Shown here: positions 16,370 to 53,394 of the stretch, piece after piece
Layout: each line of letters begins with the position of its first letter
How positions within the stretch are numbered: position 1 is the first letter of the stretch
DNA from: Candidatus Aminicenantes bacterium UBA2199
GTDB taxonomy: Bacteria; Acidobacteriota; Aminicenantia; UBA2199
Reading direction: 5' to 3'
NCBI GenBank assembly: GCA_002327965.1
Contig: DCVB01000095.1
Location: 16,659-80,658, forward strand
Length of the DNA stretch: 64,000 bases
Made by a program: the position numbers and the translations under genes
The notes under the pieces: model-generated
The model's input: the letters and a program-made list of their open reading frames with translations, nothing else
What the model was told of the DNA's origin: nothing
Databases searched by the model: none

Positions 16370-16431
16370 TGGGGCATTATATCACAAGAACAAAATGAAC
16401 CGGGATCGCAGGCAATGAAGGATTGTCATAC

Positions 16432-16918: not shown

Positions 16919-16927
16919 TGCTCATCT

Positions 16928-17941: not shown

Positions 17942-18075
17942 CGCCCCTGAGCGCCGCAAGCAATCGCAGCGTATTGTCTCTCGAAAAACAAATCTCTGCT
18001 CATTGTTTTCAGTATAACAAATTGCATCGATCCAGTTCAAGGAAATTCCGATTTTTATTTATAAAGATAAAGAAA

Positions 18076-18238
18076 GTGATCGTGATCGTGATCGTGTTAG
18101 TGAAGAAAGTATTTCACTGCAGTGATTTCTTTCACCTTACGCCTTAAACCTTGCACCTTAAACCAAGTCCCATATTTTCCGGCTAACACTGACACTTGTC
18201 TTTCTATTGCACTACTGACACTGACACTGTCACTGTTG
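18076..18238. repeat. Mosaic: GTGNNN hexamers x5, palindrome TCACTGCAGTGA, CCTTNNN heptamers x4, CTGACA hexamers x4
   Basis: gtgatc x3 gtgtta gtgaag (18076-18105); ccttacg ccttaaa ccttgca ccttaaa (18135-18162); ctgaca ctgaca ctgtca ctgttg (18215-18238). Confidence 0.9.
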
Positions 18239-18243
18239 GATCG

Positions 18244-19104: not shown

Positions 19105-19187
19105 GGTGATCTTTCTCCCGGCCAAGGATAAAGGAATTCCCCCGGCGATGCAATCCCGTCTCCATAAAAATCGCCTTTGTTTCCGGG

Positions 19188-19216
19188 TTGCCATGACCGG
19201 GAAAATTCCCTATAAT
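19188..19216 (+). promoter_or_regulatory. Promoter of kamA
   Basis: TTGCCA-17 nt-TATAAT, 37 nt upstream of ATG 19253, which has a GGAGGA SD. Confidence 0.55.
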
Positions 19217-19252
19217 CGGATCAGGACCGTTGGTGACCCGCTGGAGGACATC

Positions 19253-22973: not shown

Positions 22974-23103
22974 CGCATGACAAGTAGGCGAGAGGCTAGG
23001 GGCAAGGGGTGAGAGGGAAGAAGAAATGGCAATCGGTGTAAGGCGTAAGGTTTAAGGTAGCCCTCTTTTCTTCCCGTAAACCGTGAACCGTATACCGTAA
23101 ACC
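22964..23103 (+). repeat. Composite ~135-bp element, copy 1 (orientation opposite to copies 2-4)
   Basis: GTGACG-type units (overlapping the GT51 stop codon) - aagtaggcgagagg... - gggaagaagaaatggcaatcg - gtaaggc gtaaggt ttaaggt - tagccctcttttcttcc - cgtaaac x4. Near-identical to the reverse complement of 27010-27150. Confidence 0.9.
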
Positions 23104-23130
23104 AATTTCACTCAATGCCACTTAAGTTCA

Positions 23131-23316
23131 ATCTGATCTCCGGCTACCACTATCACTACCACTACCACTTATAACCCATTGAGTCTCTTGCTGACACTGA
23201 CACTGTCACTGACACTGAATTTCGCTCTGATCTCCTGCTACCACTATCACTAACACTAACACTTTTGCTCATAGAGCCTCTTGCTGACACTGACACTGTC
23301 ACTGACACTCAATATC
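23131..23316 (+). repeat. Tandem duplication of a ~94-bp unit (TACCAC/TATCAC hexamers + CTGACA hexamers)
   Basis: Unit 1 is 23131-23222 and unit 2 is 23225-23316. They align with few substitutions except a ~9-nt patch. A third, inverted, truncated copy lies at 26885-26950. Confidence 0.9.
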
Positions 23317-24240: not shown

Positions 24241-24253
24241 AAAACCTGATCTC

Positions 24254-24468
24254 GGTTGACGGTGTACGGTTTACGGTTTACGGGAAGAAAAGAGGACTAC
24301 CTTAAACCTTACGCCTTACACCGATTGCCATTTCTTCTTCCCTCTCACCCCTCGCCTACTCGTCACGCGTCACGAAGCTCGATGTCTTGTTCCTTCGCAT
24401 AACGCCTGACGCATGAAGACGGATCCTTTCTTTGCCGCCGCCGTACACCGTAAACCGTCCACCGTAAA
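24254..24468 (-). repeat. Composite element copy 2 plus GCATAAC-type array, bounded by inverted GGTTTAC / CCGTAAA arrays
   Basis: ggttgac ggtgtac ggtttac ggtttac (24254-24281) ... accttaa accttac gccttac ... tcgtcac gcgtcac (to 24374) ... gcataac gcctgac gcatgaa ... ccgtaca ccgtaaa ccgtcca ccgtaaa (24441-24468). Confidence 0.9.
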
Positions 24469-24474
24469 CGGTGA

Positions 24475-25131: not shown

Positions 25132-25150
25132 GATTTATTATAACACAGAG

Positions 25151-25178
25151 TTCGATGTTCGACGTTCGACGTTCGATG
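25151..25178. repeat. Heptamer array TTCGAYG x4
   Basis: ttcgatg ttcgacg ttcgacg ttcgatg, 17 nt upstream of the -35 box of the 25195 promoter. Same family as 16533-16560. Confidence 0.9.
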
Positions 25179-25194
25179 TTGAAGAAAACGGTCG

Positions 25195-25243: not shown

Positions 25244-26860
25244 ATGAAAAAAATGACATTCACCGCCTTGGCAATTCTTTTCCTGGCGATCTTCCTGTTT
25301 TCCGGACCCGGCGCGGTGATCAAAAAGCTGCCCGCTCCGTCGCCCTGCGGCACCGGTCTGGCCTTTGACGGCCAGGCCTTCTGGACCGTGGACCGCGACA
25401 GCGACATGCTCTACCGCATCGATCCCTCCGATGGCAGGCTGCTGGCGTCGTTCGACGCCCCGGGCTACTTCTGCACCGCCCTGGCCTGGGACGGCAAGTC
25501 CCTCTGGGTGGCCGACATGGATTTCACCAACACCTCCGCCGAGGACTATTGCGGCAAGATCTACCAAATCGACCCGGCCAGCGGCCGCACCCTGAAGGTG
25601 ATCATGGCGCCGGGGTCCGACCCGCAGGGGCTGGCCTGGGACGGCAGGACCCTGTGGGTCTCCGACAACGGCAGCCGCGAGATCTTTCAGATCAGCCCCG
25701 AAGACGGGACGACGATCAGGACCCTGAAGGCCCCCGCCGGCGACCCGCGCGGCCTGGCCTGGGACGGGAATTACCTGTGGCTGGCCGACCGCTCGAAGGA
25801 CGAGCTCTACCGCATCGACCCGGTCAAGGGGCGCGTCATCATGGTCCTGCCCGCCCCCGGCCCCTATCCCTGGGGCATGACCTGGGCAAGGAACAGCCTG
25901 TGGGTCGCCGACTACCAGGATGACGAGATCGCCCAGGTCGCCGTCTTCGTGGACGGCGCGTACACGCGCGCCAAGGAGCGGAACGCCCTGGTTACCTTCA
26001 CCCACGACGTCATCAACTTCGGCCCCGGCACCGTGACCGATCTGGACGTCTACCTGGCCCTGCCCAAGCAGCGCTCCACCCAGGATATCCTGGCTGTCGA
26101 GTTCGCCGAGGTCCCGGATGCCAGGCTGACCGACCGCTGGGGCCAGGAGGTGGCCCGCTTCCGGAAAACCTCCCTCAAGCCCGGCGAACGCGCCTTGACC
26201 CGCATGCGCGTCAAGGCCAAAATTTACGACGTGATGTACCATCTCTTCCCGGAGAAGGCGGGAACGCTGAAGGACATCCCCGCCGACGTGCGCAACCGCT
26301 ACCTGGCCGATGACGACAAGTACCGCCTCAAGGATCCGGTCATTCAGGCGGCGGTCAAGGAGGCTGTCACCCGTCCGGACAACCCCTACTGGATCGCCCG
26401 CGACCTCTACGACTGGCTGCACGACAAGATGGTCTACCAGCGCATCGGCGGCTGGGATGTGGCGCCCACGGTGCTGCAGCGCGGCTCGGGTTCCTGCTCG
26501 GAGTACGCCTTCGTCTACATCGCCATGTGCCGCGCCGCCGGGCTGCCGGCGCGCTACGCGGGCTCGGTGGTCGTGCGCGGCGAGGACGCCAGCTTCGACT
26601 TCGTCTACCATCGCTGGGTGGAGGTCTACCTGCCCAACAGCGGCTGGGTGCCGGTCGATCCCAGCGGCGGCGACCAGGAGTCCACGCGCGACCAGGCCAT
26701 GTACTTCGGCCACCTGGAGAACCGCTTCCTGATCACCACCGAGAGCGGCGGCGGCTCCGAGTACCTGAAGTGGGACTACAACTCCTCGGAGAGCTGGCAG
26801 GCCGACGGCCGCGTGCAATTGCGGCTGGAAATGATCGCCGATTGGGACAGGCTCGAGTAA
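25244..26860 (+). CDS. Secreted beta-propeller (glutamine cyclotransferase-like repeats) fused to transglutaminase-like cysteine protease domain
   Basis: SD CAGGAGG and a signal peptide. Five repeats of the type GLAWDGxxLWVAD. C-terminal transglutaminase core GSGSCSEYAFVYIAMCRAAGLPARY...HRWVEVYL...VPVDPS (Cys-His-Asp). Confidence 0.8.
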   Translation: MKKMTFTALAILFLAIFLFSGPGAVIKKLPAPSPCGTGLAFDGQAFWTVDRDSDMLYRIDPSDGRLLASFDAPGYFCTALAWDGKSLWVADMDFTNTSAEDYCGKIYQIDPASGRTLKVIMAPGSDPQGLAWDGRTLWVSDNGSREIFQISPEDGTTIRTLKAPAGDPRGLAWDGNYLWLADRSKDELYRIDPVKGRVIMVLPAPGPYPWGMTWARNSLWVADYQDDEIAQVAVFVDGAYTRAKERNALVTFTHDVINFGPGTVTDLDVYLALPKQRSTQDILAVEFAEVPDARLTDRWGQEVARFRKTSLKPGERALTRMRVKAKIYDVMYHLFPEKAGTLKDIPADVRNRYLADDDKYRLKDPVIQAAVKEAVTRPDNPYWIARDLYDWLHDKMVYQRIGGWDVAPTVLQRGSGSCSEYAFVYIAMCRAAGLPARYAGSVVVRGEDASFDFVYHRWVEVYLPNSGWVPVDPSGGDQESTRDQAMYFGHLENRFLITTESGGGSEYLKWDYNSSESWQADGRVQLRLEMIADWDRLE

Positions 26861-26884: not shown

Positions 26885-26997
26885 TAGTGTCAGCAAGCGG
26901 CCTTATGGGTATAAGTGGTAGTGGTAGTGATAGTGGTAGCCGGAGATTAGAAGGAACTCTTGTTCTTTCGCATAACACCTGACGCATAACGATAAGT
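26885..26997 (-). repeat. Inverted copy of the 94-bp unit (GTGGTA hexamers x4) followed by GCATAAC-type heptamers
   Basis: The reverse complement of 26885-26950 matches 23131-23200 (ctccggctaccactatcactaccactaccacttata...cttgctgacact). gcataac acctgac gcataac gataagt lies at 26970-26997. Confidence 0.85.
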
Positions 26998-27009
26998 ACC
27001 ATTGCAATT

Positions 27010-27150
27010 GGTTTACGGTATACGGTTCACGGTTTACGGGAAGAAAAGAGGGCTACCTTAAACCTTACGCCTTACACCGAATGCCATTTCTTCTTCCCAC
27101 TCACCCCTAGCCCCTCGCCCCTCGCCTACTTGTCACGCGTCACGCGTCAC
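27010..27150 (-). repeat. Composite ~135-bp element, copy 3
   Basis: ggtttac ggtatac ggttcac ggtttac - gggaagaaaagagggct - accttaa accttac gccttac - accgaatgccatttcttcttccc - (tcacccc tagcccc tcgcccc tcgccta) - ttgtcac gcgtcac gcgtcac. Confidence 0.9.
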
Positions 27151-29503: not shown

Positions 29504-30735
<1,232 letters not shown>

Positions 30736-30736
<1 letters not shown>

Positions 30737-31962
30737 TGAAATTCTGGGAAGTCCTGAAGGTCGCCTTCGCCTCGCTGCGCGGCAACAAGCTGCGCTCCTC
30801 GCTGACCGTGCTGGGTATCGTTATCGGCATTTTCTCCATCATCTCCATCAGCACCGTGATCACCATGCTGCAGAACTCCATCAACGAGGGGCTGTCGAGT
30901 CTGGGAAAAAACACATTCCAGATCCAGAAGTTCCCGGCCATGCAGCAGGGGCGCCTGAGCGACAAGATCCGCAACCGCAAGAACCTGACCATTGAGGAGT
31001 ACTACCGGCTGCGCGAGATGCTCGACGAGGCCAAGCTGGTCGGCGCCGAGCAGTGGCAGTTCGGCAAGCTCTTCAAGTCGCAATATGACGAGACCAACGC
31101 CAATATCCAGCTGGCCGGCGCCACCCCCGAGGCCATGCTGACCAACGACTGGCAGATCGCCGACGGCCGCTCAATCAACCAGGACGACATGGACCGCAAC
31201 CGGCGCGTCTGCGTGCTGGGCGTCGACGTGGCCAGGAAGCTTTTCCCACGCGTCGACCCGCTGGGCCAGGAGATCAAGGTCGACGGGTTGCGCCTGGACG
31301 TCATCGGCGTCCTCGTGACCCGGGGCGCTATGTTCGGGCAGTCGCGCGACGGCTTCGTGGTCGCGCCGCTCTCCACCTTCCAGGCCAAGTACGGCAAGAC
31401 CAGCCGCAGCGTCAACATCACGGTCATGGCCCACAGCCCGGTCACCTACAACCGCACCATCGACGCCGCCATCGGCCACATGCGCACCATCCGCAAGGTG
31501 GCGCCGGGAGAGGAGAACGACTTCGACATCTTCTCCAACGAGTCGCTGATCTCGCAGGTGGGCCAGATCACCCAGTACGTGCGCCTGGGCGCTATCGTCA
31601 TCGCTTTCATCGCGCTGCTGGCCGCAGGCGTCGGCATCATGAACATCATGCTGGTCTCGGTGACCGAGCGTACGCGCGAGATCGGCATCCGCAAGGCCAT
31701 CGGCGCCAAAAAACGCAACATCCTTTTCCAGTTCCTGGTCGAGGCCGTCACCCTGTGCCAGTTCGGCGGAATCATCGGCATCGTTTTGGGCCTGAGCGCC
31801 GGCAACCTGGCCGGCAAGGCCCTGAATGCCGCCCCGGCCGTGCCGCTCGACTGGGTGCTGGCCGGCATCGGCCTCTGCGTGCTGGTCGGCGTCGGCTTCG
31901 GCACCTACCCGGCCTGGAAGGCGGCCAACCTGGACCCCATCGAGGCATTGCGCTACGAATAG
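30736..31962 (+). CDS. ABC transporter permease, second paralog (MacB_PCD + FtsX)
   Basis: ATG 30736 overlaps the preceding TAA by 1 nt (MKFWEVLKVAFASLRGNKLRS). FtsX motif ERTREIGIRKAIGAKKRNI. The 812 aa track ORF (29524..) is a frame artefact upstream of this start. Confidence 0.85.
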
Positions 31963-32130
31963 TGAGGCGTAACGCGTGACGCGTGACGCGAAGTATGCAA
32001 AAGCAATTTCCGGACTGCTGAGTAATGGCAAATGAAAAACAACAAAGGATCTTTTGCCAACACGGGACCATTTCTCGGAAATCGGTTTTCTATTGCTTTT
32101 TCGCGTTACACGTTATGCGTCACGCGTCAC
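31962..32130. repeat. Inverted pair of GTGACGC-type arrays between convergent genes
   Basis: gtgaggc gtaacgc gtgacgc gtgacgc (31962-31989) and gcgttac acgttat gcgtcac gcgtcac (32103-32130). The second array encodes the last codons and the stop of gltS. Confidence 0.9.
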
Positions 32131-33499
32131 GTTGGCTCGTTCCGTCTCCTCCCGGCCACGGCTTCAGGCGGAACCAGCCGCTCAGCAGCGACACCAACCA
32201 GAAGAAGGCCATGATCCCGGCGGCGAGGGCCAGCGCCCGCCAGGCGCCATAGCGGACGATCAGGAAGGGGGCGGTGGCGGTGACCAGCCCGCCGCCCAGC
32301 AGCGGTTCGTAGACCATCTGCTTGAAGCCGAAGGCCTCGGCCGTGCCGGTGTCGTACAGCGGGTCGACCAGCCGCAGCAGCAGCAGGCCGATGGCGGTCA
32401 CGCCGCTCTGCATGCCGTACTCGGTGACGCCGCGCTCGAGCCAGTAGCGCGGGAACATGCGCGGCGCCAGCACGGCCAGGGTGAAGAACAGCCAGGCGAT
32501 GCCCGCGGCCATCAGCAGCAGGAACGGCCAGAAATTGGTCACGAAAAGATCGAGGCGCATGGTGGCGATGGCCGCCACCACCAGCAGGTCGATGGAAAAT
32601 CCGAGGATGCGCTCGAAGGTGTCGCGGTCGAAGTAGCGGTCGACGCGCAGCGGCCGCGCCAGCGCCTGGATGAGCAGGCCGCCGATCATGGCCAGGGGGA
32701 AGAGCGGGAAACCGCGCAGCAGCGGATGCAGGGCGCGCACGCCGCCCAGCATGATCCAGCCCAGGAGCACGGCCAGCGCCACCAGGGCGAAGTGGAAAGC
32801 GAACGGCTCCAGCGAATCCGGCGAGACCGTGGCGTGGGCGATCGGGAAACGCTGCTCCCGGCTCAGCAGGCCGGAAGAGGGGCGGCGCAACGCCGCACCA
32901 TGGCCCGGGCCCAGGGTGCGGTAACCCCGGCGCAGGGCGATGTTGATGAACAGGATGCCGCCGACCACGGCGGTGATGATGCCCACGGTGGCCGACATCT
33001 GCGCCAGGGCCGCTCCGGCCGGGAAACCGACCTCCTGGAAGACCCCGGCCATGCCCGCGGCCGTGCCGTGGCCGCCGGAAAAGCCGATCTCGAGGATGCA
33101 GGCAAAGACCGGCGGCACGCCGAAAACCGGCGAAAGAACCAGCAGGGTGAGCAGCAGGGCGACGACGTACTGGCCCAGCCCGGCCACCAGGCCGAAGCAG
33201 AGCTGTGCCCCGCCCTGGTTCCAGATGGCGCGCATCCCCGGCAGGGCGACGCCCAGGAACAGGCTGGCAAACACGATGTTGATCAGCAGCCCGGGGACCT
33301 GCGCCCACTCGCGCCCCACCCAGGCTGGCAGCAAATCGAGCAGATAGGGGCCGCAGGCCAGGGCGATGAAGCCGCCCAGGATCGAGGAAGGCAGGTAGAG
33401 GGTCTGGAACAGGCGCACGGCCACGCGCAGCGCCTTGCCGAGCAGGAGAAAGAGGCCCAGCAGGCAGAAGCTGAAGAACAGGGCGCTGGCTCCTTCCAT
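32120..33499 (-). CDS. gltS: Sodium/glutamate symporter (GltS family)
   Basis: 459 aa polytopic membrane protein. GltS-like N-terminus (LLGLFLLLGKALRVAVRLFQTLYLPSSILGGF). The last 4 codons and the stop lie inside a GTGACGC heptamer array. Confidence 0.8.
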   Translation of the reverse strand: MEGASALFFSFCLLGLFLLLGKALRVAVRLFQTLYLPSSILGGFIALACGPYLLDLLPAWVGREWAQVPGLLINIVFASLFLGVALPGMRAIWNQGGAQLCFGLVAGLGQYVVALLLTLLVLSPVFGVPPVFACILEIGFSGGHGTAAGMAGVFQEVGFPAGAALAQMSATVGIITAVVGGILFINIALRRGYRTLGPGHGAALRRPSSGLLSREQRFPIAHATVSPDSLEPFAFHFALVALAVLLGWIMLGGVRALHPLLRGFPLFPLAMIGGLLIQALARPLRVDRYFDRDTFERILGFSIDLLVVAAIATMRLDLFVTNFWPFLLLMAAGIAWLFFTLAVLAPRMFPRYWLERGVTEYGMQSGVTAIGLLLLRLVDPLYDTGTAEAFGFKQMVYEPLLGGGLVTATAPFLIVRYGAWRALALAAGIMAFFWLVSLLSGWFRLKPWPGGDGTSQRDA

Positions 33500-34510: not shown

Positions 34511-34746
34511 GTGTGAGTGATAGTGTTGGCGTTAGCGGGAACCAAGGAAATCGGTTTACGGTGGACGGTTTCCAAAGCAAAGAACAAGCGATTGTTGATG
34601 GGTAGAAGAGTAGAAGGGTTGATGGGTTAGCAGCCCTTGATTGGGCCATGCCTGAACCCTTCAACTCTTGAACTCTTTAACTCTTCAACTTTTTTGTTTG
34701 GGTCAAAGTCCCTGCCCGGGGAAATGTTAGTGACAGTGTCAGCAGG
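34511..34746. repeat. Mosaic including two period-8 arrays
   Basis: gtgtga gtgata gtgttg (34511-); ggtttac ggtggac ggtttcc (34552-34573); gttgatgg gtagaaga gtagaagg gttgatgg gttagcag (34593-34632); cttcaact cttgaact ctttaact cttcaact (34658-34689); gtgaca gtgtca (34730-34741). Confidence 0.85.
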
Positions 34747-34760
34747 AAATGAAAGGAATC

Positions 34761-34894
34761 GGTTTACGGTGGACGGTTTACGGTTTACGGGAAGAAAAGA
34801 TGGCTACCTTAAACCTTACGCCTTACACCGATTGCCATTTCTTCTTCTCTCTCACCCCAAGCCCCTAGCCTCTCGCCTACTCGTCACGCGTCAC
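34761..34894 (-). repeat. Composite ~135-bp element, copy 4
   Basis: ggtttac ggtggac ggtttac ggtttac - gggaagaaaagatggct - accttaa accttac gccttac - accgattgccatttcttcttctc - tcacccc aagcccc tagcctc tcgccta - ctcgtcac gcgtcac. Lies directly downstream of the DprA-like gene. Confidence 0.9.
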
Positions 34895-34910
34895 GATGGA
34901 TCCCGGGGAG

Positions 34911-45307: not shown

Positions 45308-46106
45308 CGGAGCGGAAATTCTTCAGGATGCCTCGCTTGGTTTTGCTGATGAAGTCGGTGATCACCCGGGCTTCCTCGCTGCCGGCGTGCTGCTCGCCGA
45401 TCTTGTGGACGGCCTGGGTGGTGTTCAGGTCGGAGTGGTAGAGGATGCGGTAGATGTCCTTGACGTTCTCGATGAAATCGCGGCTGAGCCCGTTGCGCAT
45501 CATGCCGATGGCATTGGGGCCGTACAGGCTGAACGACTCGCGGCTCTGGGCCACCTTGGCGAACGGCAGGATATCCTGGCAGACCACGCTGTAGCCGCCG
45601 ATGTAGGCGTTGCGGCCGATGCGCACGAACTGGTGCACGGCACAGAAGGCGCTGAGCACGACATAGTCGCCGATCTCGACATGGCCGGCCAGGGTGGCGC
45701 CGTTGCTGAGGATGATGTGGCTGCCGAGCTGGCAGTCGTGGGCCACGTGGGTATACGCCATGAGATAGTTGTCGTCGCCCAGGCGCGTGTGGCCGCCCCC
45801 CTTCGGCGTGCCGCGGTTGATGGTGGTGAACTCGCGGATGATATTGCGATCGCCGATATGCACGAAAGTCTCCTCGCCCTTGAAGGTGATGTCCTGGGGG
45901 TCGGTTCCCAGCGAGGAAAAGGGGAAAATGTGGCAGCCGCTCCCGATGACGGTGTTGCGGTCGATGGTGGCATGGTGCTTGACCACCGTGAGGTCGCCGA
46001 TGCGCACGCCGGGCCCGATGACCGAATAGGCGTCGACCTGCACATCCCTGCCGAGCTCGGCCTTGGGGCTGATGACGGCGGTGGGATGGATCAGCGGCTG
46101 CCTCAC
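45300..46106 (-). CDS. lpxA: Acyl-ACP--UDP-N-acetylglucosamine O-acyltransferase
   Basis: Left-handed beta-helix hexapeptide repeats (IHPTAVISPKAELGRDVQVDAYSVIGPGVRIGD...) and a C-terminal helical domain. Confidence 0.9.
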   Translation of the reverse strand: MRQPLIHPTAVISPKAELGRDVQVDAYSVIGPGVRIGDLTVVKHHATIDRNTVIGSGCHIFPFSSLGTDPQDITFKGEETFVHIGDRNIIREFTTINRGTPKGGGHTRLGDDNYLMAYTHVAHDCQLGSHIILSNGATLAGHVEIGDYVVLSAFCAVHQFVRIGRNAYIGGYSVVCQDILPFAKVAQSRESFSLYGPNAIGMMRNGLSRDFIENVKDIYRILYHSDLNTTQAVHKIGEQHAGSEEARVITDFISKTKRGILKNFRSDG

Positions 46107-46537
46107 TGGGTCACCATGCAGCTCATGGTCGCTTCGACCGCCAGCTGGCCGTCCACCGAGGCCTTGCCCTCGATGACGGCGAACCTGCCCCGGTCGCGAA
46201 CCACCAGCACGTCGAGATCCAGACGGTCTCCCGGCACGACGGGCTTCTTGAAACGGACTTTCTCGATGCCGGCGAAATAGGCATACACCTTCTGGCCGAC
46301 GAAGCGCTGCATCAACAGCACCGCCCCCAGCTGGGCCAGGGCCTCGATGATCAGCACCCCCGGCATGACCGGGTTGCCGGGGAAATGGCCCTGGAAAAAA
46401 TCCTCGTTGCCGGTGACGTTCTTGTAGCCCTGGATGGTCTGGCTCCCGTCGCAGGCGGTCACGCGGTCGACCAGCAGAAAGGGATAGCGATGGGGCAGGA
46501 TGCGCTTGATGCCCTCGATATCCAGAGGCAGGTTCAT
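46103..46537 (-). CDS. fabZ: 3-hydroxyacyl-ACP dehydratase
   Basis: [14 protein letters not shown] and [23 protein letters not shown] motifs. Confidence 0.95.
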
Positions 46538-47052
46538 TTCTTGGCGGCGGCGGCGGACTGGGCGTCGTAGGACTTGACCACCTTCTCGGTGAGGTCGATG
46601 GTGGGATCGAAGAAGGTGACGCCGGCCGTGTTCAGGTCCAGGACCAGGGAAAAGCCATTCTCCGTGGCGACCTTCTCGATGATCGGCATCAGGTCTTTCT
46701 GGATCGCCTCGAATTCCTTCTGCTGGGCGGCCATGCTTTCCTTCTGGGCGTCCTCGGCGAAGCGCTTGATCTCGGTGCGCTTGTTGGCCAGGTCCTGGGT
46801 CTTGCGGTCGCGGGCCTCGGCGTTCAGCGCCGGGGAGAGGACTTCCTTCTCCAGGGCATCGATCGCCTTCTGCAGCGACTCGTACTTCTTCTGCTTGGCG
46901 GTCGTCAGCGCCTGCAGGCGGCCGATGGCTTCCTTGCCCTTGACCGAGTTCTGCAGGACGACCTGGGGATTGATGATGCCGATCTTGAATTCGGCGAAGG
47001 CGAACGCGCTCAGGGCCACCAGGGCCGCGATCAACAACAGGTGTTTTTTCAT
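46534..47052 (-). CDS. skp: Periplasmic chaperone OmpH/Skp
   Basis: Signal peptide, coiled-coil-rich ~170 aa protein immediately downstream of bamA. Confidence 0.85.
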   Translation of the reverse strand: MKKHLLLIAALVALSAFAFAEFKIGIINPQVVLQNSVKGKEAIGRLQALTTAKQKKYESLQKAIDALEKEVLSPALNAEARDRKTQDLANKRTEIKRFAEDAQKESMAAQQKEFEAIQKDLMPIIEKVATENGFSLVLDLNTAGVTFFDPTIDLTEKVVKSYDAQSAAAAKK

Positions 47053-47073
47053 GGTTATCTCCTTATTGAAATC

Positions 47074-49389
47074 TTAATAAAACGACGGACCAACGGCGAA
47101 CTTGAAGACAAAGTGCGAATCGCCGACATTCAGCAGCCGCGGGTTGTAGGCGAAGATCAGGCGGAAGGGGACATTGAGCATGGGCACGAAGACCTTCAGC
47201 TCCAGGCCGGTTGACGTGTAGACGTCCTTCAGCCGGATCGGCGTGCCGGCGTCGTAGGAATTGCCCATGTCGTAGAAAAAGACGAAGGAGAACTGCTGGG
47301 TCAGGGGGATGGCGTATTCCAGGTTGAACAGGAACGACTTGGTCCCGCCCAGGACGCTGCCGTTCTTGTCGCGCGGGCCGATGGTGTAGATGTCAAAGCC
47401 GCGAAGCGAGCGTTCGCCGCCCAGGAAGTACTTCTCGTAGAAGGGGACCCGGCGGTTGGCGAACGGCGACAGGCCCTCGTAGGCCAGGTGCAGGCCCAGC
47501 ACGTGCCGCTTCCACAGGGGCTGGAAGCGGACGAGCTCCAGCTTCAGCTTGTGCAGGTAGATGTCCCCGCCCAGGAAGCCGCCCGAATAGCGGTAAGTGG
47601 CCAGGACCTTGCTGCCCTGGGAGGGAAAGATCGGCGAGTCGACGGTGGAATAGTACAGGGTGGGCGAAAGGGCCGAGACGCGCCGCTTGCCCTCGCTGTA
47701 GTAGTACATGTAATAGGAGCTGATGTACTGGTAGCTCTCGTTGACGTCGCTGATCTCGATGTCCTCCATGCTGTACACCAGCTGGCTGCCCCAGTAGGTC
47801 CAGAAACGGGCCGAGCTGGAGATGTTGAAGCCCTGCCCCTTGCGCGTGTACATGTAGGGGTATTCATAAGTGGTCTTGAACAGGTCGATACCGAAATTGG
47901 CCGGCAGGTTGAACAGGTAAGGCTCGGTGAAGGCGAACTGGTAGTTCTTGGCGCGCGTGCCCTGCTGCAGATTGAGCGTGAAGGCTTCGCCCATGCCCAG
48001 GAAGTTCTGCGTGGAATAGCCGGCGGCGATGAACCAGCCCTCGTAGCCGCTGTAGCCCACGTTGAAGTTGATCATCTGCCGGTTCATCTCCTTGACCTCG
48101 GCGATGATGTCGATCTTCTGGGGGTCCTGGGGGTCGGCCTTGATCTCGGGCATCTTCTCCACGGTGACCAGGCCCAGCTGCTTCATGCGCTTGATCGAGT
48201 CCTCCAGGGCGTTGATGTTCAGGCGCTTGCCCTCGCGCAGGAACCACTCGCGGCGGATGACGTGGTCCTTGGTGAAGGTGTTGCCGGTGAACTCGAGCTT
48301 GCCCAGGTAGACGACCTCGTTCTCCTGGATGCGGATGGTCAGGTCGGCGATGCGCCGTTCCGGGTCCAGGTTCTCGCTGGGCACGACCTGGGCGTAGAAG
48401 TAGCCGATGCCGCCGTAGAACTTCTGCATGCTCTCGATGATCTTGTTGCGCTTCTTGATGTTGTACACCTGGCCCTTCTTGAAGCCGACCAGGCTCTTGA
48501 GGAAGTCGGTGCGGATGACCTTGTTGCCCTCGATGGCGATCTCACCCATGCGGTAGCGCGGGCCGAGATCCACCGGAATGCTGAGCTGCAGCATGTTCTG
48601 CCGGTGACCGAGGATCGTTTTCCGCTCCATGGTGGCGAATTCCGGCGTGCCGACCTTGGCCTCAAGATATCCCTTCTGCTGCAGGCGCAGGCGGACCTCC
48701 TCAAGGTCTTCCTCGATCTTCTCGCGGTTGTACACATCCTTGCCGGCGACGGCCGAGAGGATGGCGTGCACCTGGTTGTTTTTGAGCCCGCGGCGCAGGA
48801 ATGACGGCGAAACCGAGCCGGGGGTGAGGCCGGGGAAAACCACCTTGGCGATGCGCGTCTTGTAGCCGGCATCGGCGCGGACGGTCAGGGCGATCTGCCC
48901 GTTCTCCTCCTTCTTCTCGTCGATGGTCACGTCGGCCTGGTTGTAGCCCTTCTCCAGGAGCATGTCGGTGATGAGCTTCTTCACCCTGCGCACCTTGGAC
49001 GGGCTGTAGTAGGAGAAGGGCTGCAGCAGGATGTTGCTGCCCTGCAGCTTCTCGTTGATGTCGCTCTCCTTGACCTTCTTGCTCAGCTTGTAGGTGACCG
49101 AGGAGATCAGCGGGTTCTCGACCAGCACCAGGCGCACGATCTTGCCGTTGGCGCCGTTCTCCTCCTCGATGCGGATGTTCTCGAAGAAGCCGGTGGCCCA
49201 AAGCGACTGGAAATCCTCCTTCAGCTTCTGCGGGTCATAGACGCCGCCCTCGCGTGATTTCATGTAGAACTGGATGGTCTCGCGCGAGACCTTGCGATTG
49301 CCTTCGACCTGGATCCTTTCGATGATGTCGGCGCACAGCCATTGGGCGCCGAGCAGCATCATGACCAGCCACGGCATTTTTTTCAGCAT
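47074..49389 (-). CDS. bamA: Outer membrane protein assembly factor BamA
   Basis: 771 aa. Signal peptide, five POTRA-like repeats (IERIQVEGNRKVSRETI...), C-terminal Omp85 barrel ending FKFAVGPSFY. Confidence 0.95.
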   Translation of the reverse strand: MLKKMPWLVMMLLGAQWLCADIIERIQVEGNRKVSRETIQFYMKSREGGVYDPQKLKEDFQSLWATGFFENIRIEEENGANGKIVRLVLVENPLISSVTYKLSKKVKESDINEKLQGSNILLQPFSYYSPSKVRRVKKLITDMLLEKGYNQADVTIDEKKEENGQIALTVRADAGYKTRIAKVVFPGLTPGSVSPSFLRRGLKNNQVHAILSAVAGKDVYNREKIEEDLEEVRLRLQQKGYLEAKVGTPEFATMERKTILGHRQNMLQLSIPVDLGPRYRMGEIAIEGNKVIRTDFLKSLVGFKKGQVYNIKKRNKIIESMQKFYGGIGYFYAQVVPSENLDPERRIADLTIRIQENEVVYLGKLEFTGNTFTKDHVIRREWFLREGKRLNINALEDSIKRMKQLGLVTVEKMPEIKADPQDPQKIDIIAEVKEMNRQMINFNVGYSGYEGWFIAAGYSTQNFLGMGEAFTLNLQQGTRAKNYQFAFTEPYLFNLPANFGIDLFKTTYEYPYMYTRKGQGFNISSSARFWTYWGSQLVYSMEDIEISDVNESYQYISSYYMYYYSEGKRRVSALSPTLYYSTVDSPIFPSQGSKVLATYRYSGGFLGGDIYLHKLKLELVRFQPLWKRHVLGLHLAYEGLSPFANRRVPFYEKYFLGGERSLRGFDIYTIGPRDKNGSVLGGTKSFLFNLEYAIPLTQQFSFVFFYDMGNSYDAGTPIRLKDVYTSTGLELKVFVPMLNVPFRLIFAYNPRLLNVGDSHFVFKFAVGPSFY

Positions 49390-49421
49390 GAAAACCTCGC
49401 AAAATTCGAGTTGAATGGTAT

Positions 49422-49450
49422 TTTATAGCACAAAACGCCATAAATTACAA
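49422..49450 (-). promoter_or_regulatory. Candidate promoter of the bamA-skp-fabZ-lpxA-lpxI operon
   Basis: The minus strand reads TTGTAA-17 nt-TATAAA, about 30 nt upstream of the bamA ATG (GAGG SD). Confidence 0.45.
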
Positions 49451-49507
49451 TTCCTCTTTACTGGATAGGACGTCCTGGAAGCAGAAAAAAGTTTCAGCGG
49501 TTTTTTA

Positions 49508-49536
49508 TTGACAGCCGAAAGCGATTGTGCTATAAA
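49508..49536 (+). promoter_or_regulatory. Promoter of the fmdB-like gene
   Basis: TTGACA-17 nt-TATAAA, 30 nt upstream of ATG 49567. Confidence 0.55.
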
Positions 49537-49566
49537 AAAAAGGTCCATCACGCGGAGGAAGTGGCC

Positions 49567-49812
49567 ATGCCGATCTACGAATACAAATGCTCGAAATGCG
49601 GCAGAGTTTTCGAGCATTTGCAGTCCGTAGCGGCCGCGCCGCTCCGCAAATGCATTTACTGCCGGGGCCGGGCCGACAAGATCATCTCCCAGAGCTCATT
49701 CCAGTTCAAGGGCTCGGGCTGGTACATCACCGATTACAGGAAGAAAGGCGCCAAGAGCGCCGCGCCGGCCAAGCCCGCGGAAAAAGTCGAAAAAAATGTC
49801 AAAGCCAGTTAG
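49567..49812 (+). CDS. FmdB-family zinc-ribbon putative regulatory protein
   Basis: MPIYEYKCSKCGRVFE...CIYCRG (CxxC...CxxC). GGAGGA SD. TTGACA-17-TATAAA promoter upstream. Confidence 0.85.
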   Translation: MPIYEYKCSKCGRVFEHLQSVAAAPLRKCIYCRGRADKIISQSSFQFKGSGWYITDYRKKGAKSAAPAKPAEKVEKNVKAS

Positions 49813-49865
49813 CCTTTCCATCTCTCCCCCCTTAATATAACCATAACCCCCACCCTACAAAAACA

Positions 49866-49888
49866 CCCCCCCCGCTACATGGGGGGGG
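49866..49888. terminator. C8/G8 hairpin, possible bidirectional terminator between fmdB and the dtd string
   Basis: CCCCCCCC-GCTACAT-GGGGGGGG. On the minus strand it is followed by TGTTTTTG. On the plus strand it is followed by CCCGCCTTTTG. Confidence 0.5.
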
Positions 49889-49920
49889 CCCGCCTTTTGT
49901 CACTGCCAGTAGATAGAATC

Positions 49921-50198
49921 GGTTTACGGTAGACGGTTCACGGTTTACGGAAAGAGAAAAGGCAATATGAAGACTTAAATTCCAAATCCCAAGCACCAAA
50001 TTCCAAACAAATTCCAAGCTCCAAATTCCAATTTCCAAAACGAAAGCCCCTTGGAATGGCATTTTCTTCGTTTTGGTCATTGAATCAAAGTCCCCGCTAA
50101 GGGGATTGGAATTTGGAATTTATTTGGGATTTGGGATTTGGTGCTTGGAATTTAATTCTTCACTTGTCACTTGTCACGCGTCACGCGTTACGCGTCAC
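49921..50198 (-). repeat. Variant composite element: same termini as copies 2-4, but the cargo is replaced by an inverted pair of ATTCCAA / TTGGAAT arrays
   Basis: agaatc ggtttac ggtagac ggttcac ggtttac (49921-49948); period-7 CCA arrays 49982-50005 and 50014-50037; mirrored TGG arrays 50104-50120 and 50122-50152; tcttcac ttgtcac ttgtcac gcgtcac gcgttac gcgtcac gatagatcc (50157-50198 and following). Compare the copy 4 ends, ggaatcggtttacgg ... gcgtcacgatggatcc. Confidence 0.9.
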
Positions 50199-50222
50199 GA
50201 TAGATCCTCCCTTTGCTGCCGC

Positions 50223-50684
50223 TTACCGCAAACAGCCGGGCTCGTCACCTGTCTTTTCCAGGATGATGGTCACCGGCCCGTCGTTGACCGAGCTCACTTC
50301 CATCATGGCGCCGAACTCCCCTGCCGCGACCGGGACGACGGCCCGCAGCAGCGAGTTGAAGCGCTCGTAGAGTTCCCGGGCCCGTCCGGGCTCCTCGGCG
50401 CGGGTGAAGTCGGGGCGGCGCCCCTTGCGGTTGCGCGCCGCCAGGGTGAACTGCGAGACCGAGAGGATCGCTCCCCGCACCTGCTGGACATCGAGGTTCA
50501 TCTTCCCCCCTTCGTCGGCGAAGACGCGCAGGTGCAGCACTTTATCGGCCAGGAAGGCGATCTCCTTATCGCCGTCGCCCTTTTCGATGCCCACCAACAG
50601 AAGAAGCCCCCGGCCGATGCGGGCCATCTCCCGCCCCGCGACGTCGACACTTGCCTGGGATACCCTCTGGATTACGAGGCGCAT
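50223..50684 (-). CDS. dtd: D-aminoacyl-tRNA deacylase
   Basis: MRLVIQRVSQASVDV...SQFTL...GRRP...NDGPVTIIL motifs. The track ORF extends upstream artefactually. Confidence 0.9.
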   Translation of the reverse strand: MRLVIQRVSQASVDVAGREMARIGRGLLLLVGIEKGDGDKEIAFLADKVLHLRVFADEGGKMNLDVQQVRGAILSVSQFTLAARNRKGRRPDFTRAEEPGRARELYERFNSLLRAVVPVAAGEFGAMMEVSSVNDGPVTIILEKTGDEPGCLR

Positions 50685-50688
50685 GGCT

Positions 50689-51552
50689 TCACCACGGGCT
50701 GCCAACCGTGCTGCCCCGCTCCGACGGGGCGGGAGGCAGATCCCTCCTCTCGCTGCCCCGGGGGGGAGGGGGTTCGACTCTCCGCAACAGCAGGGGCGAA
50801 TCAAGGTCGATCCGCAGGCCCTCGTTTTCCCCATTTCCCCCGGGCAGAGGGGCGCCGCCGCGTATCCAGCCGGAGATGCGGCAGACCAGCCAGGCCCGGG
50901 AATGGGGAAGATCGGGCTCCAGGTGCAGGCGGACGATCTCCAGCCGGCTCTCGTCCCACGAGACATGATTGATGAATCCCAGCAATGCCGGCAGCGGCGC
51001 CATGGCGACGACGCAGACGGAGCGGTTCGCGGGCTGGCCGCATGGCGAAGGCTGTCCGCCGAGCAGGCCGCGCCAGTAAAAGCGTCCCGGGTCACGGGCC
51101 CGCGAAAAACCCTCCTGGATGGCGACGGTTTGGCCGCCGATCCAGCCGCGGAGGGGATCCCCTCGTTCCGGGCCGGCGCTACCCAGCTCGGGCGCATCGG
51201 TCATATTGCCGAACAGGAACCGGGCATGGGGAATGCCGTCCAGGAGGATCCGTTGCTGCAGGCCGGTCAGGGCCACGGCTCTCCAGCCGGCGTCATCGTC
51301 CACCGGCGGCAGCGCCTGGAAGGCCCGGGAGTCCATTTGCGCCAGGAGATCCTCTTCAGCCGCGTCGGGAAATTCGAGATCAACGGCCTTGGCGCCGTAG
51401 TTCCTGATCTTCCGATCCCAATCGCCGCGCTCGCGGCGCAGGCGGCCCAGGTCCCTGACGGTCGGATACCAGTCCAGGGCGACGAAGGCGGCCGCGACGG
51501 CGAGCGCCGCCAGGGCCTGGAGCAGGGAGCGCGCCAGTTTCCCCCAGCTCAC
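50689..51552 (-). CDS. Hypothetical membrane-anchored protein (PilO/GspM-like topology)
   Basis: N-terminal TM (LLQALAALAVAAAFVAL), then a charged helix and a globular domain. 4-nt overlap with the upstream gene. The functional call is weak. Confidence 0.5.
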   Translation of the reverse strand: MSWGKLARSLLQALAALAVAAAFVALDWYPTVRDLGRLRRERGDWDRKIRNYGAKAVDLEFPDAAEEDLLAQMDSRAFQALPPVDDDAGWRAVALTGLQQRILLDGIPHARFLFGNMTDAPELGSAGPERGDPLRGWIGGQTVAIQEGFSRARDPGRFYWRGLLGGQPSPCGQPANRSVCVVAMAPLPALLGFINHVSWDESRLEIVRLHLEPDLPHSRAWLVCRISGWIRGGAPLPGGNGENEGLRIDLDSPLLLRRVEPPPPRGSERRDLPPAPSERGSTVGSPW

Positions 51553-52058
51553 GGCTGCAACTCCACCCGGCCGCGGACGGCGAAGAGGCGCGGCCCGCTG
51601 CCGGGGGCAGGCGCCGGAGTCGCCATGATATCGAAAGCCGCGGCCGCATTCCCCAGTTGCTCCAGGAAATCATCGAACCCGCGCCGGGCGACGGTATCCG
51701 CTTCGATCGCCAGCTCGAAGCTCATGTCGTGCAGACCGGGATCGATGCGGACCGAGACCAGCCGCAGCGGCGCCGCGATGCCGTCCAGGCGGCGGACGAG
51801 ATCGGCGGCGGCGTAGGACGCGGCCATGGGATAGTCGAGAAAATAGCGGAGCTGATGGAAGCGGGCGCGCCGGGCCTTGGTCGCGGCGACCGGTTGTTCG
51901 CGCACCAGCTCGCCGTAGCTCCGTTTCATCTCCGCGGCCTCCCGGGCGCGGCTGAAGCGCACCGCGTGCAGCAGCAGGGAGATGACGGCCAGGAATGAAA
52001 ACAGGAACAGCGGCCAACGCCGCCGGCGGCGAAGCGGGCGATCGTCTGGCTCGTTCAT
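51549..52058 (-). CDS. Hypothetical membrane-anchored protein (PilN-like topology)
   Basis: Basic N-terminus, TM (WPLFLFSFLAVISLLLHAV), helix, then an alpha/beta domain (LRLVSVRIDP...SFELAIEA). The functional call is weak. Confidence 0.5.
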   Translation of the reverse strand: MNEPDDRPLRRRRRWPLFLFSFLAVISLLLHAVRFSRAREAAEMKRSYGELVREQPVAATKARRARFHQLRYFLDYPMAASYAAADLVRRLDGIAAPLRLVSVRIDPGLHDMSFELAIEADTVARRGFDDFLEQLGNAAAAFDIMATPAPAPGSGPRLFAVRGRVELQP

Positions 52059-52067
52059 GGCCGGGGT

Positions 52068-52472
52068 TCAGCCGCCGACGAACTTCAGGAAGACCCGCCG
52101 CTGGCGCGGGCCGTCGAACTCGCAGAAATAGATCCCCTGCCACGAACCGAGGATCGGTTCGCCGTTGTTCACCACCAGGGCCTCGGAGGCGCCCACCAGG
52201 CTGGACATGATGTGCGCCGGCGAGTTGCCCTCGCCGTGCCGGAAATAATCGTGCCTGGGCGCCAGGCGCTTGAGGAACTCGCCGATGTCATGGGGCACGT
52301 CCGGGTCGGCGTTCTCGTTGATGGTCACGGCGGCGGTGGTATGCGGCGTGAAGACCAGCAGGATGCCCGAGTTGCATTTGCCGTCGCGCAGCATCTCGCG
52401 CACCTGGGCGGTGATATCGATGAATTCAATCTTTTGCGTGCTCTTCAGCTCGATGGCATGGTAGGCGCTCAT
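52068..52472 (-). CDS. YjbQ/UPF0047 family protein (secondary thiamine-phosphate synthase)
   Basis: GGAGGA SD upstream of ATG 52472, with ATGA overlap with the AMMECR1 stop. Motifs TPHTTAAVTINENADP and GNSPAHI. Confidence 0.85.
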   Translation of the reverse strand: MSAYHAIELKSTQKIEFIDITAQVREMLRDGKCNSGILLVFTPHTTAAVTINENADPDVPHDIGEFLKRLAPRHDYFRHGEGNSPAHIMSSLVGASEALVVNNGEPILGSWQGIYFCEFDGPRQRRVFLKFVGG

Positions 52473-53032
52473 GCTTCCTCCGCGTGCTTTTTTTCGCCGA
52501 AAACGACCGCCTGGAAGGTCTCGATGGTCACTCCCCTTTTCCACTCGTCGGCTGCCAGCCCCGCCTTGCGGCAGCCGTAGGAAACGTACTGCTCCAGGTC
52601 CCAGCCCTGCTCGAGCGGCACCTGGGGCAGCAGCAGGCCGCGATTCACCCCCTTGCTGACGATGATGCCGTCGACGCCGACCCGCACGTCCCCCGGGCCG
52701 GATACGGGCCGCGGAACGGTCAGGACCGAGATCTCGATATCGAGCCCGGGCAGTTCATCGCCGTTGACGGCGGGAAAGCGCGGGTCCTCGAAAGCGGCGG
52801 CCAGGGCCATTTCGCGAACAGCCTCCCAGAGCGGCTTCACGGGCAGCGGGTAACCGATGCAGCCGCGCAGCTCGCCGTCGCGATGCAGGGTGACGAAGAC
52901 GCCGCGTTTCTCCAGGAACACCGGCTCCGGAGCCGGTTCACCGCCGCGCTCCCTTGAGGCCAGGTATCTGCGGATGGTCTCCCGGGCCAGCGCCAGGAGC
53001 GTTTTTCCTTCCGCGCCGCTCAATTCAGCCAT
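52469..53032 (-). CDS. AMMECR1-domain protein
   Basis: Hallmark LRGCIG motif (GELRGCIGYP) and a size of 187 aa. Confidence 0.85.
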   Translation of the reverse strand: MAELSGAEGKTLLALARETIRRYLASRERGGEPAPEPVFLEKRGVFVTLHRDGELRGCIGYPLPVKPLWEAVREMALAAAFEDPRFPAVNGDELPGLDIEISVLTVPRPVSGPGDVRVGVDGIIVSKGVNRGLLLPQVPLEQGWDLEQYVSYGCRKAGLAADEWKRGVTIETFQAVVFGEKKHAEEA

Positions 53033-53394
53033 TCCGCCCCGGTTTCTTCCGCAAGCGGCGCCAGGCGCGCCTTCTTCACGGCCGGATCGAATTCACAGGT
53101 GAAAGCCCGGATTTCCCTGAGACGCACGGCGAGGACCAGGCCGCCGATGGACCATTCCCGGGCCCGCGGCGGCTTGCGGCAGAAGAACGTCCCCTGCAGC
53201 CGCTCGCCGTATTGCCGGCAGGCGGCGGCATGGACGGCGTCGCTGCCGGCCGTGCCGAAATCCAGTGGCAGGAGCCGCTCGACCAGGATCGAACGACCGA
53301 TCCCCGTCCCCAGCAGGAAGCCCGCCCCGCGGTAGCCGGAGGCGCGCAGGACCGCGATGTCCTCCAGCGCCGTCGGCAGCAGTTGCACGTTCAT
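53020..53394 (-). CDS. Hypothetical protein
   Basis: 124 aa ORF, first gene of the AMMECR1-yjbQ-dtd co-directional string, with a 13-nt overlap with AMMECR1. No recognisable motif. Confidence 0.4.
   Translation of the reverse strand: MNVQLLPTALEDIAVLRASGYRGAGFLLGTGIGRSILVERLLPLDFGTAGSDAVHAAACRQYGERLQGTFFCRKPPRAREWSIGGLVLAVRLREIRAFTCEFDPAVKKARLAPLAEETGAEWLN

Follow-up and report, generated by a model that had tools for sequence, protein, structure and literature searches.

The BOX repeats of Streptococcus are intergenic composites with the structure boxA-(boxB)n-boxC, and families are found in S. suis in which boxA/C or boxE/F ends stand around shared inner modules (PMC3049150). Each BOX module is a ~45-130-nt unique sequence, and terminal inverted repeats and target-site duplications have been reported for BOX; co-transcription of the repeats in UTRs is common and no dedicated transposase is known (PMC3049150). 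A REP consists of one GC-rich palindrome, 20-40 nt long, whose GTAG/CGTC end is conserved, and is associated with a RAYT gene; extragenic and highly repeated, REPs form with other short motifs mosaics such as the BIMEs of E. coli, located between convergent genes or within operons, and roles in mRNA stability, termination and protein binding have been proposed for them (PMC3333891, PMC3116915). Intergenic arrays of heptamers are described in PMC4692102 and PMC4679880 as STRR in cyanobacteria (Calothrix/Anabaena) and with the units GGGGAYT in Nostoc, GGGAATC in Xanthomonas and TAACTGA in Beggiatoaceae, and polymerase slippage has been proposed as the source of the bacterial heptamer excess (Mrazek et al. 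2007, as cited in PMC4692102 and PMC4679880). MITEs such as Nezha, Correia and RUP are small, non-coding, multi-copy elements with strong folding, built as AT-rich islands of unique sequence. Very small repeats nested in the heptamer arrays of Nostoc were reportedly described by Elhai et al. in 2008. No report of such repeats for Aminicenantes was found in the literature searched.

We analyzed a 293-bp element (49915-50207) within a 64-kb stretch of the genome of Candidatus Aminicenantes bacterium UBA2199, hereafter the window (~65% G+C), together with ~300 kb of DNA from relatives. On balance we lean towards reading this element as one copy of a lineage-wide family of mosaic intergenic repeats, comparable to BOX and BIMEs, in which the arrays would slip and the modules would be reshuffled by array-anchored recombination.

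A strict detector found 25 arrays of period 6-8 in the 5.87 kb of spacers of the window (15 of period 7, 9 of period 6 and 1 of period 8) and none in ~58 kb of coding DNA, while shuffled spacers gave a mean of 1.46 arrays and a maximum of 4; arrays were present in 13 of the 24 spacers of at least 100 nt. The units belong to families that we named by letters, a prime marking the inverted orientation: GGTTTAC (A), ACCTTAC (B), GTCACGC (C), ATTCCAA (D), CTGACA (E), CTACCA/TCACTA (F), GTTCGAC (G), CGCATAA (H), an AAAAG-type unit found in relatives only (K), and others. They occur in both orientations, often as inverted pairs. A CRISPR array was considered and rejected, the units being 6-8 nt long and contiguous, not spaced repeats of 24-48 nt.

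In substance, the closest described system is the intergenic heptamer arrays: both have many loci confined to intergenic DNA, 7-nt units, copy number and sequence that vary among close relatives, and occasional inverted pairs able to form stem-loops (PMC4692102, PMC4679880). Nevertheless, one or few units dominate in the STRR-type genomes described there, whereas at least 10 families (7-mers, 6-mers and some 8-mers) share the 64 kb, with no one or few dominant units; unlike the STRR-type arrays, those of Aminicenantes are connected through fixed linkers, giving recurrent composites that follow a syntax, and are swapped as blocks.

When species-representative genomes were scanned with the left-end pattern of the element, hits were obtained in the nearest genomes, Candidatus Aminicenantes UBA2190 (five loci) and UBA6072, and one UBA2190 locus (L013) is orthologous to window positions 45373-53385 with 92% identity. 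The proteins of the window likewise have homologues labelled Aminicenantes or Acidobacteriota. Module A with its (A)ATC flank is also present in UBA2190, UBA6072 and other relatives.

The element, composed of A-linker-D..D'-C, occupies part of a 411-nt spacer that separates two convergent genes, one encoding an FmdB-type zinc-ribbon protein (49568-49812, plus strand) and the other dtd, D-aminoacyl-tRNA deacylase (50223-50684, minus strand). Read on the plus strand, it begins with AGAATC, the fixed flank of module A (49915-49920), followed by the imperfect array of this module, 4.3 units of GGTNNAC (49921-49950; GGTTTAC, GGTAGAC, GGTTCAC, GGTTTAC and GG). A purine-rich linker, AAAGAGAAAAGGCAATATGAAGACTTAA (49951-49978), connects this array to the D arm; its first ~10 nt are common to a 135-bp family of A-B-C copies present elsewhere in the window and its remainder is always accompanied by a D arm, the portion GAAGACTTAAATTCCAAATCCCAAGCACCAAAT having an identical copy at 16805-16837 on the minus strand. 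Eight NNNCCAA heptamers (ATTCCAA, ATCCCAA, GCACCAA, GCTCCAA and others) make up the D arm (49979-50038), the left arm of a palindrome whose 67-nt centre (50039-50105) is the site of an inner stem (50029-50044 with 50067-50082) and of an 18-nt mini-hairpin, AAAGTCCCCGCTAAGGGG (50087-50104), the pattern of which was not enriched in the window (2 found against 1.37 expected, with up to 3 mismatches). The right arm, D' (50106-50151), consists of TTGGNNN heptamers; their order is not the mirror of that in D, and the arms pair via the common CCAA/TTGG core. The right end (50152-50207) comprises TTAATTCT, two TCACTTG units (50160-50173), the module C array of 3.5 GTCACGC units (50174-50198) and the fixed flank GATAGATCC (50199-50207).

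The ~190-nt interior is an imperfect palindrome with 57-nt arms (49968-50024 and 50106-50162) that are 81% complementary, and the RNA fold predicted for the element region reached -147.7 kcal/mol, with z = -8.55 against shuffles. The main stem comes from these interior arms and not from pairing of module A with module C, which sets the element apart from the BOX pattern, in which the end modules pair as the main stem. By visual comparison, the mismatches between D and D' are not compensated either in the window or in a distant relative (locus L022), and since the arms also differ in unit order, covariation alignments would be ambiguous. No Rfam match at the gathering score was obtained in the window, the best scores within 49400-50300 being 12-25 bits against thresholds of 40-100.

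Just 3' of the FmdB stop codon, ~90 nt are common to all the orthologous spacers, including a terminator-like C8-GCTACAT-G8 hairpin with T-runs on both strands (49864-49898), and a terminator scan located a minus-strand terminator at 49889-49865, downstream of the element. The element thus has the stop codon of dtd on one side and this conserved bidirectional terminator on the other, which puts it in the likely dtd 3' UTR. From this location, transcription of the element as a large hairpin of the dtd-operon 3' UTR is probable, and it could play a role there comparable to that of REP/BIME or BOX elements, whether in protecting mRNA 3' ends, in termination or in binding proteins. The predicted folding upon transcription is a further likeness to BOX, as are the UTR co-transcription common there and the lack of a known dedicated transposase (PMC3049150).

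Four copies of the 135-bp family, all A-B-C, were located in the window: 22969-23110 (minus strand, subtype 1a, 95% identical to 27003-27144 and 90% to 34745-34895), 24247-24375 (plus strand, followed by an H array and an inverted A' array at 24441-24469), 27003-27150 (plus strand, with an additional CCCCTCG array) and 34745-34905 (plus strand, ending in GCGTCACGATGGATCC; copy 4 of the original prediction), the last of these having been replaced in UBA6072 by another subtype, the ends of the copy marking the breakpoints. Mutual likeness among the four is 90-95%; this similarity, taken with five UBA2190 loci that match the left-end pattern and have no B of that subtype behind it, also fits a recent transposition burst, a point against our preferred explanation. 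No folding beyond that of shuffles was detected in the 135-bp copies (z from -1.4 to +0.9), nor did they show an orientation bias relative to transcription, two of the four being antisense to the flanking genes; this occurrence in both orientations relative to the neighbouring genes speaks against a 3'-UTR role.

The original prediction held that the 293-bp element shares both of its ends with the 135-bp elements, and that between them heptamer blocks and their inverted counterparts are placed around a centre. Both claims stand, the second in all its sequence statements. The left-end 21-mer GGTTYACGGTTTACGGRAAGA, which spans the 3' end of module A, has 6 occurrences in the window against 0.00 expected (none in 100 shuffles), and the right-end 21-mer CGTCACGCGTCACGAWRGATC has 3 against 0.01 expected (up to 3 mismatches); in a self-BLAST of the window the leftmost 43-46 nt aligned to all four 135-bp copies with 84-91% identity, both ends recurring far above chance. 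The match of both flanks to copy 4 was found as proposed over the 43-46 nt on the left, and on the right it is present but only ~21 nt long. The TTGGAAT sequences at 16.7-16.8 kb, taken at first for independent occurrences of the module, turned out to belong to further copies of parts of the element. A second copy of A, the linker and the start of the D arm is located at 16802-16884 on the minus strand (16802-16879 being 91% identical to 49927-50004) and runs via an 86-nt insert that carries a TCACTA array into 16685-16715 (minus strand), which carries the inner end of the D arm and AAACGAAAGCC and is 100% identical to 50018-50048, and then into a TGTCAG array.

Local slippage combined with chance similarity of abundant arrays, or misassembly, could be invoked for such resemblances, given that heptamer arrays are common in this genome and that 3 of the 5 short-read contigs end inside the element (at 49974, 50171 or 50174). 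However, the similarity continues through non-array linkers and flanks, which disposes of mere array abundance, the refuting alternative named in the original prediction, and the pattern counts lie far above those of shuffles. Moreover, two independent metagenome assemblies span the element without gaps at no less than 99.97% identity over ~15 kb, and the orthologous genome agrees with them; with two spanning assemblies and a copy at the same site in a related genome, the structure is not an assembly artefact. Slippage alone, chance or misassembly is therefore already refuted and keeps hardly any probability.

UBA2190 carries the element at the orthologous site, with 96.6% identity across 268 aligned positions; the mini-hairpin region contains an 18-bp indel, and UBA2190 has one TCACTTG unit (7 bp) fewer. 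At four-fold degenerate sites the identity between the two genomes is 88.8% for BamA and 81.5% for dtd. In the distant locus L022 (BamA 72.6% nucleotide identity, ~0.57 at four-fold sites) A-linker-D..D' is retained directly after the same terminator, while in L029 the same D..D' palindrome is found between AAAAG and CTTTT arrays (K-D..D'-K'). In L025, K and the first D unit remain and unrelated arrays come next, and in L026 and L027 the arrays are different throughout; for L025 and L026 the distance to the window is no greater than that of UBA2190 (BamA four-fold identity 0.887). At the FmdB-dtd site, the inner palindrome is thus the old part, around which the outer arrays have been exchanged, the whole element having been replaced in some close relatives.

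These comparisons bear on a second reading, according to which the modules are selected cis-acting elements, either operator-like sites for array-reading proteins (cf. heptad arrays and ribbon-helix-helix proteins) or structured RNA, their modularity providing combinatorial regulation. It would account for an element more conserved than synonymous sites with respect to UBA2190, for an A-D..D' kept at the same site in a relative with ~72% nucleotide identity, for a GTTCGAY array that in three genomes keeps its copy number and its place immediately 5' of a -35-like TTGACA, with varying unit sequence, and for the similar (GGTTTAC)n-purine linker hairpins of Omnitrophota and Wenzhouxiangella. However, L025 and L026, no more distant than UBA2190, have a fully replaced spacer, an argument against any essential function that depends on the specific sequence; more than 10 unit families spread over half of all the spacers are unlike regulons, unit-by-unit complementarity of the arms is maintained neither in the window nor in L022 (by eye), copies lie in both orientations and Rfam gave no match. 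Conservation above synonymous sites in one lineage and wholesale replacement in another may be read for or against selection; on the whole, we regard selected cis-acting elements as an improbable explanation.

Block exchange was also seen at other orthologous spacers. In the TPR-DprA spacer, the window and UBA6072 are 95.9% identical over the 314 nt left of the element, 61.9% in the A-B-C element itself and 85% in the right flank; the alignment of the element has 29 gap columns and breakpoints at GGAATC| and inside the C array, and the UBA6072 copy is of a different subtype, resembling a UBA2190 paralogue. At the same position L033 carries centre-D'-TCACATG-C, which by eye is ~95% like window 50106-50207; with the whole D'-TCACATG-C-GAT junction recurring in a different spacer of another genome, the D'-C junction is itself a repeated composite. 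The ApbA-VKOR spacer reads A-linker-B-C-H-A' in the window and A-linker-D..D'-C-H-A' in L032, with ~200 nt of further modules between D and D' and a C-H-A' part that is 85.5% identical, and in L019 a GTTCGAC/GTCGAAC hairpin is found instead. The PBP-ApbA spacer has A-B-C in the window and A-D..D'-B-C in L032, and in L017 a B'..B hairpin takes the place of the palindrome (an inversion), while the TGase-MFP spacer has A-B-C in the window versus A-X-C in L019, X being 60 nt of other sequence. L016 had been considered as an ortholog of the PBP-ApbA spacer and was dropped, its flanks being unlike those of the window; an impression that the 32.0-kb spacer was far more conserved than its genes was dropped as well, L019 being ~93% identical throughout the region.

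The four orthologous-spacer comparisons show that alternative interiors do occur within a genuine A...C frame, which behaves as a discrete unit, and that the breakpoints lie at module edges. With respect to the original prediction of conserved ends around an exchangeable interior, the A...C unit with alternative interiors is confirmed and the single fixed pair of ends is not. The proposed comparison of orthologous spacers for insertion boundaries did reveal breakpoints at module edges, but only replacements and internal gains or losses, with no clean empty site. Breakpoints of this kind fit a site-specific mechanism equally well, a point against the array-anchored recombination that our preferred explanation supposes.

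Further composites place the element in a larger repertoire. The D..D' palindrome with A/A' ends forms a complete hairpin of ~270 nt in L009 and L015, and the A-D half is joined to a TGTCAG array (A-D-E') in ~7 module strings, according to an approximate regex annotation, which also placed TGTCAG and/or TGGTAG arrays (E'(F')) 5' of A in ~11 of 21 cases. The composite A-D..D'-B-C was found at two non-orthologous loci (L016 and L032); since B and D..D' co-occur there, the 135-bp element and the 49915-50207 element look like two shorter derivatives of it. Module order is non-random. The end modules reassort, the ends of the palindrome being A/A', K/K', A/E' or A...C in the loci compared, with no fixed pair.

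The closest architecture is that of the BOX repeats, E. coli BIMEs being also close. BOX and Aminicenantes repeats are both intergenic composites with recognisable end modules and variable inner modules, and in both different end pairs stand around the same inner module (PMC3049150); fixed ends with a variable interior are found in the A...C frame, which holds B, D..D', D..D'+B or X. On the other hand, the Aminicenantes modules are arrays of 6-8-nt units and not longer unique sequences, neither terminal inverted repeats nor target-site duplications were found in the Aminicenantes element in contrast to those reported for BOX (PMC3049150), and the host differs, belonging to another phylum and having 65% G+C. 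With REP/BIME the repeats share an extragenic, highly repeated, palindromic nature, the mosaic association with other short motifs and locations between convergent genes or within operons (PMC3333891, PMC3116915). Extragenic mosaic clusters are present in the window too, which makes this a working likeness and not membership: unlike REPs, the Aminicenantes units form tandem arrays, the hairpins are of ~190-270 nt and no RAYT was found in the window or related loci. Likewise, no family of REP-type GC-rich palindromes of 20-40 nt with a GTAG/CGTC end was detected, the repeats being tandem 6-8-mers and long composite hairpins.

The remaining alternative to a reshuffled mosaic family is a non-autonomous, MITE- or REPIN-like cassette, in which A...C units would be copied or exchanged by a trans-acting transposase or an HUH/RAYT-type enzyme recognising terminal arrays or hairpins, with the interiors as passengers. 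The multiple copies that are 90-95% identical in the window, the discrete boundaries between the window and UBA6072 and the related composites at non-orthologous loci of different genomes would all be expected of such a cassette, and so would a subtype apparently amplified in this genome only: none of the five UBA2190 loci, picked by the same left-end pattern, has B of the window subtype after the left end. An additional, tentative lead is that A and B units both contain TTAC, the cleavage and target tetranucleotide of IS608-type TnpA.

Nonetheless, the ends formed by modules A and C are not inverted repeats, only the internal D/D' arms having been found, although the sibling copies in L009, L015 and L029 do end in inverted arrays as full palindromes. 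On inspection (not a formal scan), no target-site duplication was seen at the six window copies or at the copies in the loci of relatives, and no true empty site was encountered, only replacements; the ends reassort freely (A/A', K/K', A/E'). Apart from an unrelated phage-integrase island, neither the window nor the annotated related loci contain a transposase or recombinase gene, Y1_Tnp gave no hit among the window proteins scanned or annotated neighbours, neither a RAYT nor a parent IS with matching ends was found in the 64-kb window or related loci, and BLAST against plasmid and phage collections gave no match. Small size, lack of coding capacity, multiple copies and strong folding are shared with MITEs, from which the elements differ in having no target-site duplications, no terminal inverted repeat in this copy, no parent IS found, and a construction from arrays. 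The suggestion in the original prediction of a cassette mobilised by a transposase is consequently not upheld, since the ends vary and terminal inverted repeats, target-site duplications and an enzyme are all missing from the window and related loci. The data give no evidence for a new mobile-element mechanism, and we consider an enzyme-driven cassette plausible but rather unlikely.

Returning to the mosaic family that we favour, a module is an imperfect array of 2-8 units of 6-8 nt together with a short fixed flank or linker, and more than 10 module types are present in the window. Modules are strung in non-random order, often as nested inverted pairs able to fold into long imperfect hairpins. 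Changes at two scales can be seen. At the smaller one, the window and UBA2190 differ by one 7-bp unit, and the array upstream of the TGase gene shows a concerted change between conserved flanks, with four GTTCGAY units in the window, four GTTCGCC units in L019 and the series GAC-GCC-GCC-GAT in L017; unit-sized steps and concerted unit change are the signature of slipped-strand mispairing. At the larger scale, close relatives differ by the gain, loss, inversion or replacement of entire modules, the breakpoints falling at module edges, and copies occupy different loci in different genomes. We infer that such block changes may arise via ordinary recombination, gene conversion and template switching, for which the shared arrays of ~25-45 nt would provide homology and the hairpins would act as fragile or priming structures. 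Excision of palindromes and inverted duplication could be part of this reshuffling, a dedicated transposase being unnecessary. Long perfect palindromes are unstable in bacteria owing to SbcCD; this instability fits the 81% complementarity of the arms and the frequent half-palindromes.

A more speculative proposal is that the arrays are the recognition and exchange sites of a dedicated system of Aminicenantes, and perhaps of other phyla, copying or swapping blocks between spacers, which would amount to a novel type of array-guided cassette exchange or mobile element, or that they are read combinatorially by a family of array-binding proteins. If either were true, it would account for the fixed syntax, for an element better conserved than synonymous sites and for the presence of (GGTTTAC)n-purine linker hairpins in unrelated phyla, but we find this very doubtful.

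What distinguishes these repeats from the described systems is the combination of many unit families in linker-joined composites with a syntax, nested palindromes and block swaps between close relatives. If this description holds, an uncultured and environmentally widespread phylum has spacers tiled by a grammar of short-array modules, which turn over faster than genes in places and slower than synonymous sites elsewhere, thus offering a compact natural system in which to study the origin, spread and upkeep of bacterial intergenic repeats, an open question for REP, BOX and the cyanobacterial heptamers. On the practical side, these elements break short-read assemblies, as seen in the contigs that ended inside the element, and their variable content could serve as strain markers.

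Beyond the close relatives, a metagenome scan with the left-end pattern recovered four loci, of which only L022 was useful. In the viral scans the left-end pattern had no match and one D-like palindrome was found, while hairpins similar to that of this lineage, with (GGTTTAC)n, the purine linker and an inverted array, also occur in genomes of Omnitrophota and Wenzhouxiangella.

Three of the five public contigs of the same strain end inside the composite repeat element (49915-50207), at positions corresponding to 49974, 50171 and 50174 of the window; repeats of this kind therefore fragment short-read assemblies and can be expected to be under-represented in genomes assembled from metagenomes. 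At the centre of the element, an 18-bp indel in the region 50083-50104 distinguishes the window from UBA2190, the related Ca. Aminicenantes genome that carries the element at the same site, and overlaps a mini-hairpin, AAAGTCCCCGCTAAGGGG (50087-50104). Similar hairpins follow TTTGGGTC in two further copies, one in the window (34705-34722) and one in locus L016 from another genome (4165-4182), and in locus L012 a GTCACGC array is broken by a related hairpin, CCCCTGGCGGGG. When the mini-hairpin pattern was counted in the window alone, its occurrence was not above chance.

The stretch that separates the FmdB-type gene from the element was also compared among relatives. About 90 nt located immediately 3' of the FmdB-type stop codon (49810-49898) are at least ~95% identical across all syntenic relatives, and this conservation persists in those whose flanking genes show a four-fold site identity of only ~57-62%. 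The stretch comprises TAGCCTTTCCATCTCTCCCCCCTTAATATAACCATAAC..., followed by a C8-GCTACAT-G8 hairpin that resembles a minus-strand terminator. A 41-codon antisense ORF (49696-49821) is opened on the minus strand by a purine-rich stretch and an ATG.

Other arrays and inverted repeats were observed elsewhere in the window. A four-unit array (25150-25180) lies directly 5' of a promoter-like TTGACA...TAGAAT site, its position and copy number being kept in three genomes (the window; L019, 10738-10768; L017, ~20533-20563), among which the unit sequence shifts in concert, as GTTCGAY, GTTCGCC and a mixed intermediate. At 31962-32131, inverted GTGACGC and GTCACGC arrays flank a 110-nt core with an inverted repeat of its own, GCAAAAGCAAT...ATTGCTTTT; this core is near-identical in L019, where the neighbouring genes are ~93% identical. 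Directly upstream of the ApbA-like gene, a 93-bp unit composed of a CTACCA-type array and a CTGACA array is tandemly duplicated (23112-23316, 84-85% identity), and the reverse complement of this array pair is found again at 26886-26958.

In the relative represented by L017, an island of ~6 kb (13923-19307) carrying a phage-type integrase, an HTH gene and an AAA_25 gene is located between the ApbA and VKOR genes, a spacer where a remnant GTTCGAC array is also present. Within coding regions, the two halves (29530-30739 and 30747-31965) of the long ORF with MacB/FtsX permease domains (29524-31962) share 59% identity, in line with a tandem duplication, and the relative L019 has two separate FtsX genes in place of this single ORF. 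The transglutaminase-like gene contains internal repeats of ~120 nt (25354-25930); both cases are ordinary coding repeats with no relation to the arrays.

Hairpins that combine (GGTTTAC)n with a purine-rich linker (GRAAGA) and with an inverted heptamer array of near-complementary sequence, the mismatches recurring periodically at one per unit, are present in unrelated phyla. They were found in an Omnitrophota SAG (L006; 249-321, 996-1066 and 1482-1548), in Wenzhouxiangella (L014/L023; 5115-5275) and in L024 (~2700-2830). The Wenzhouxiangella hairpin lies just 3' of a gene resembling rplA, probably in the rplA-rplJ spacer. A contig classed as viral, with 57% G+C (L034, IMG/VR UViG_3300046710_000270), contains between two genes a short palindrome of the NNNCCAA/TTGGNNN type, ATTCCAAATCCCAAGCACCAAATCC...GGGATTTCG... 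(6883-6990).
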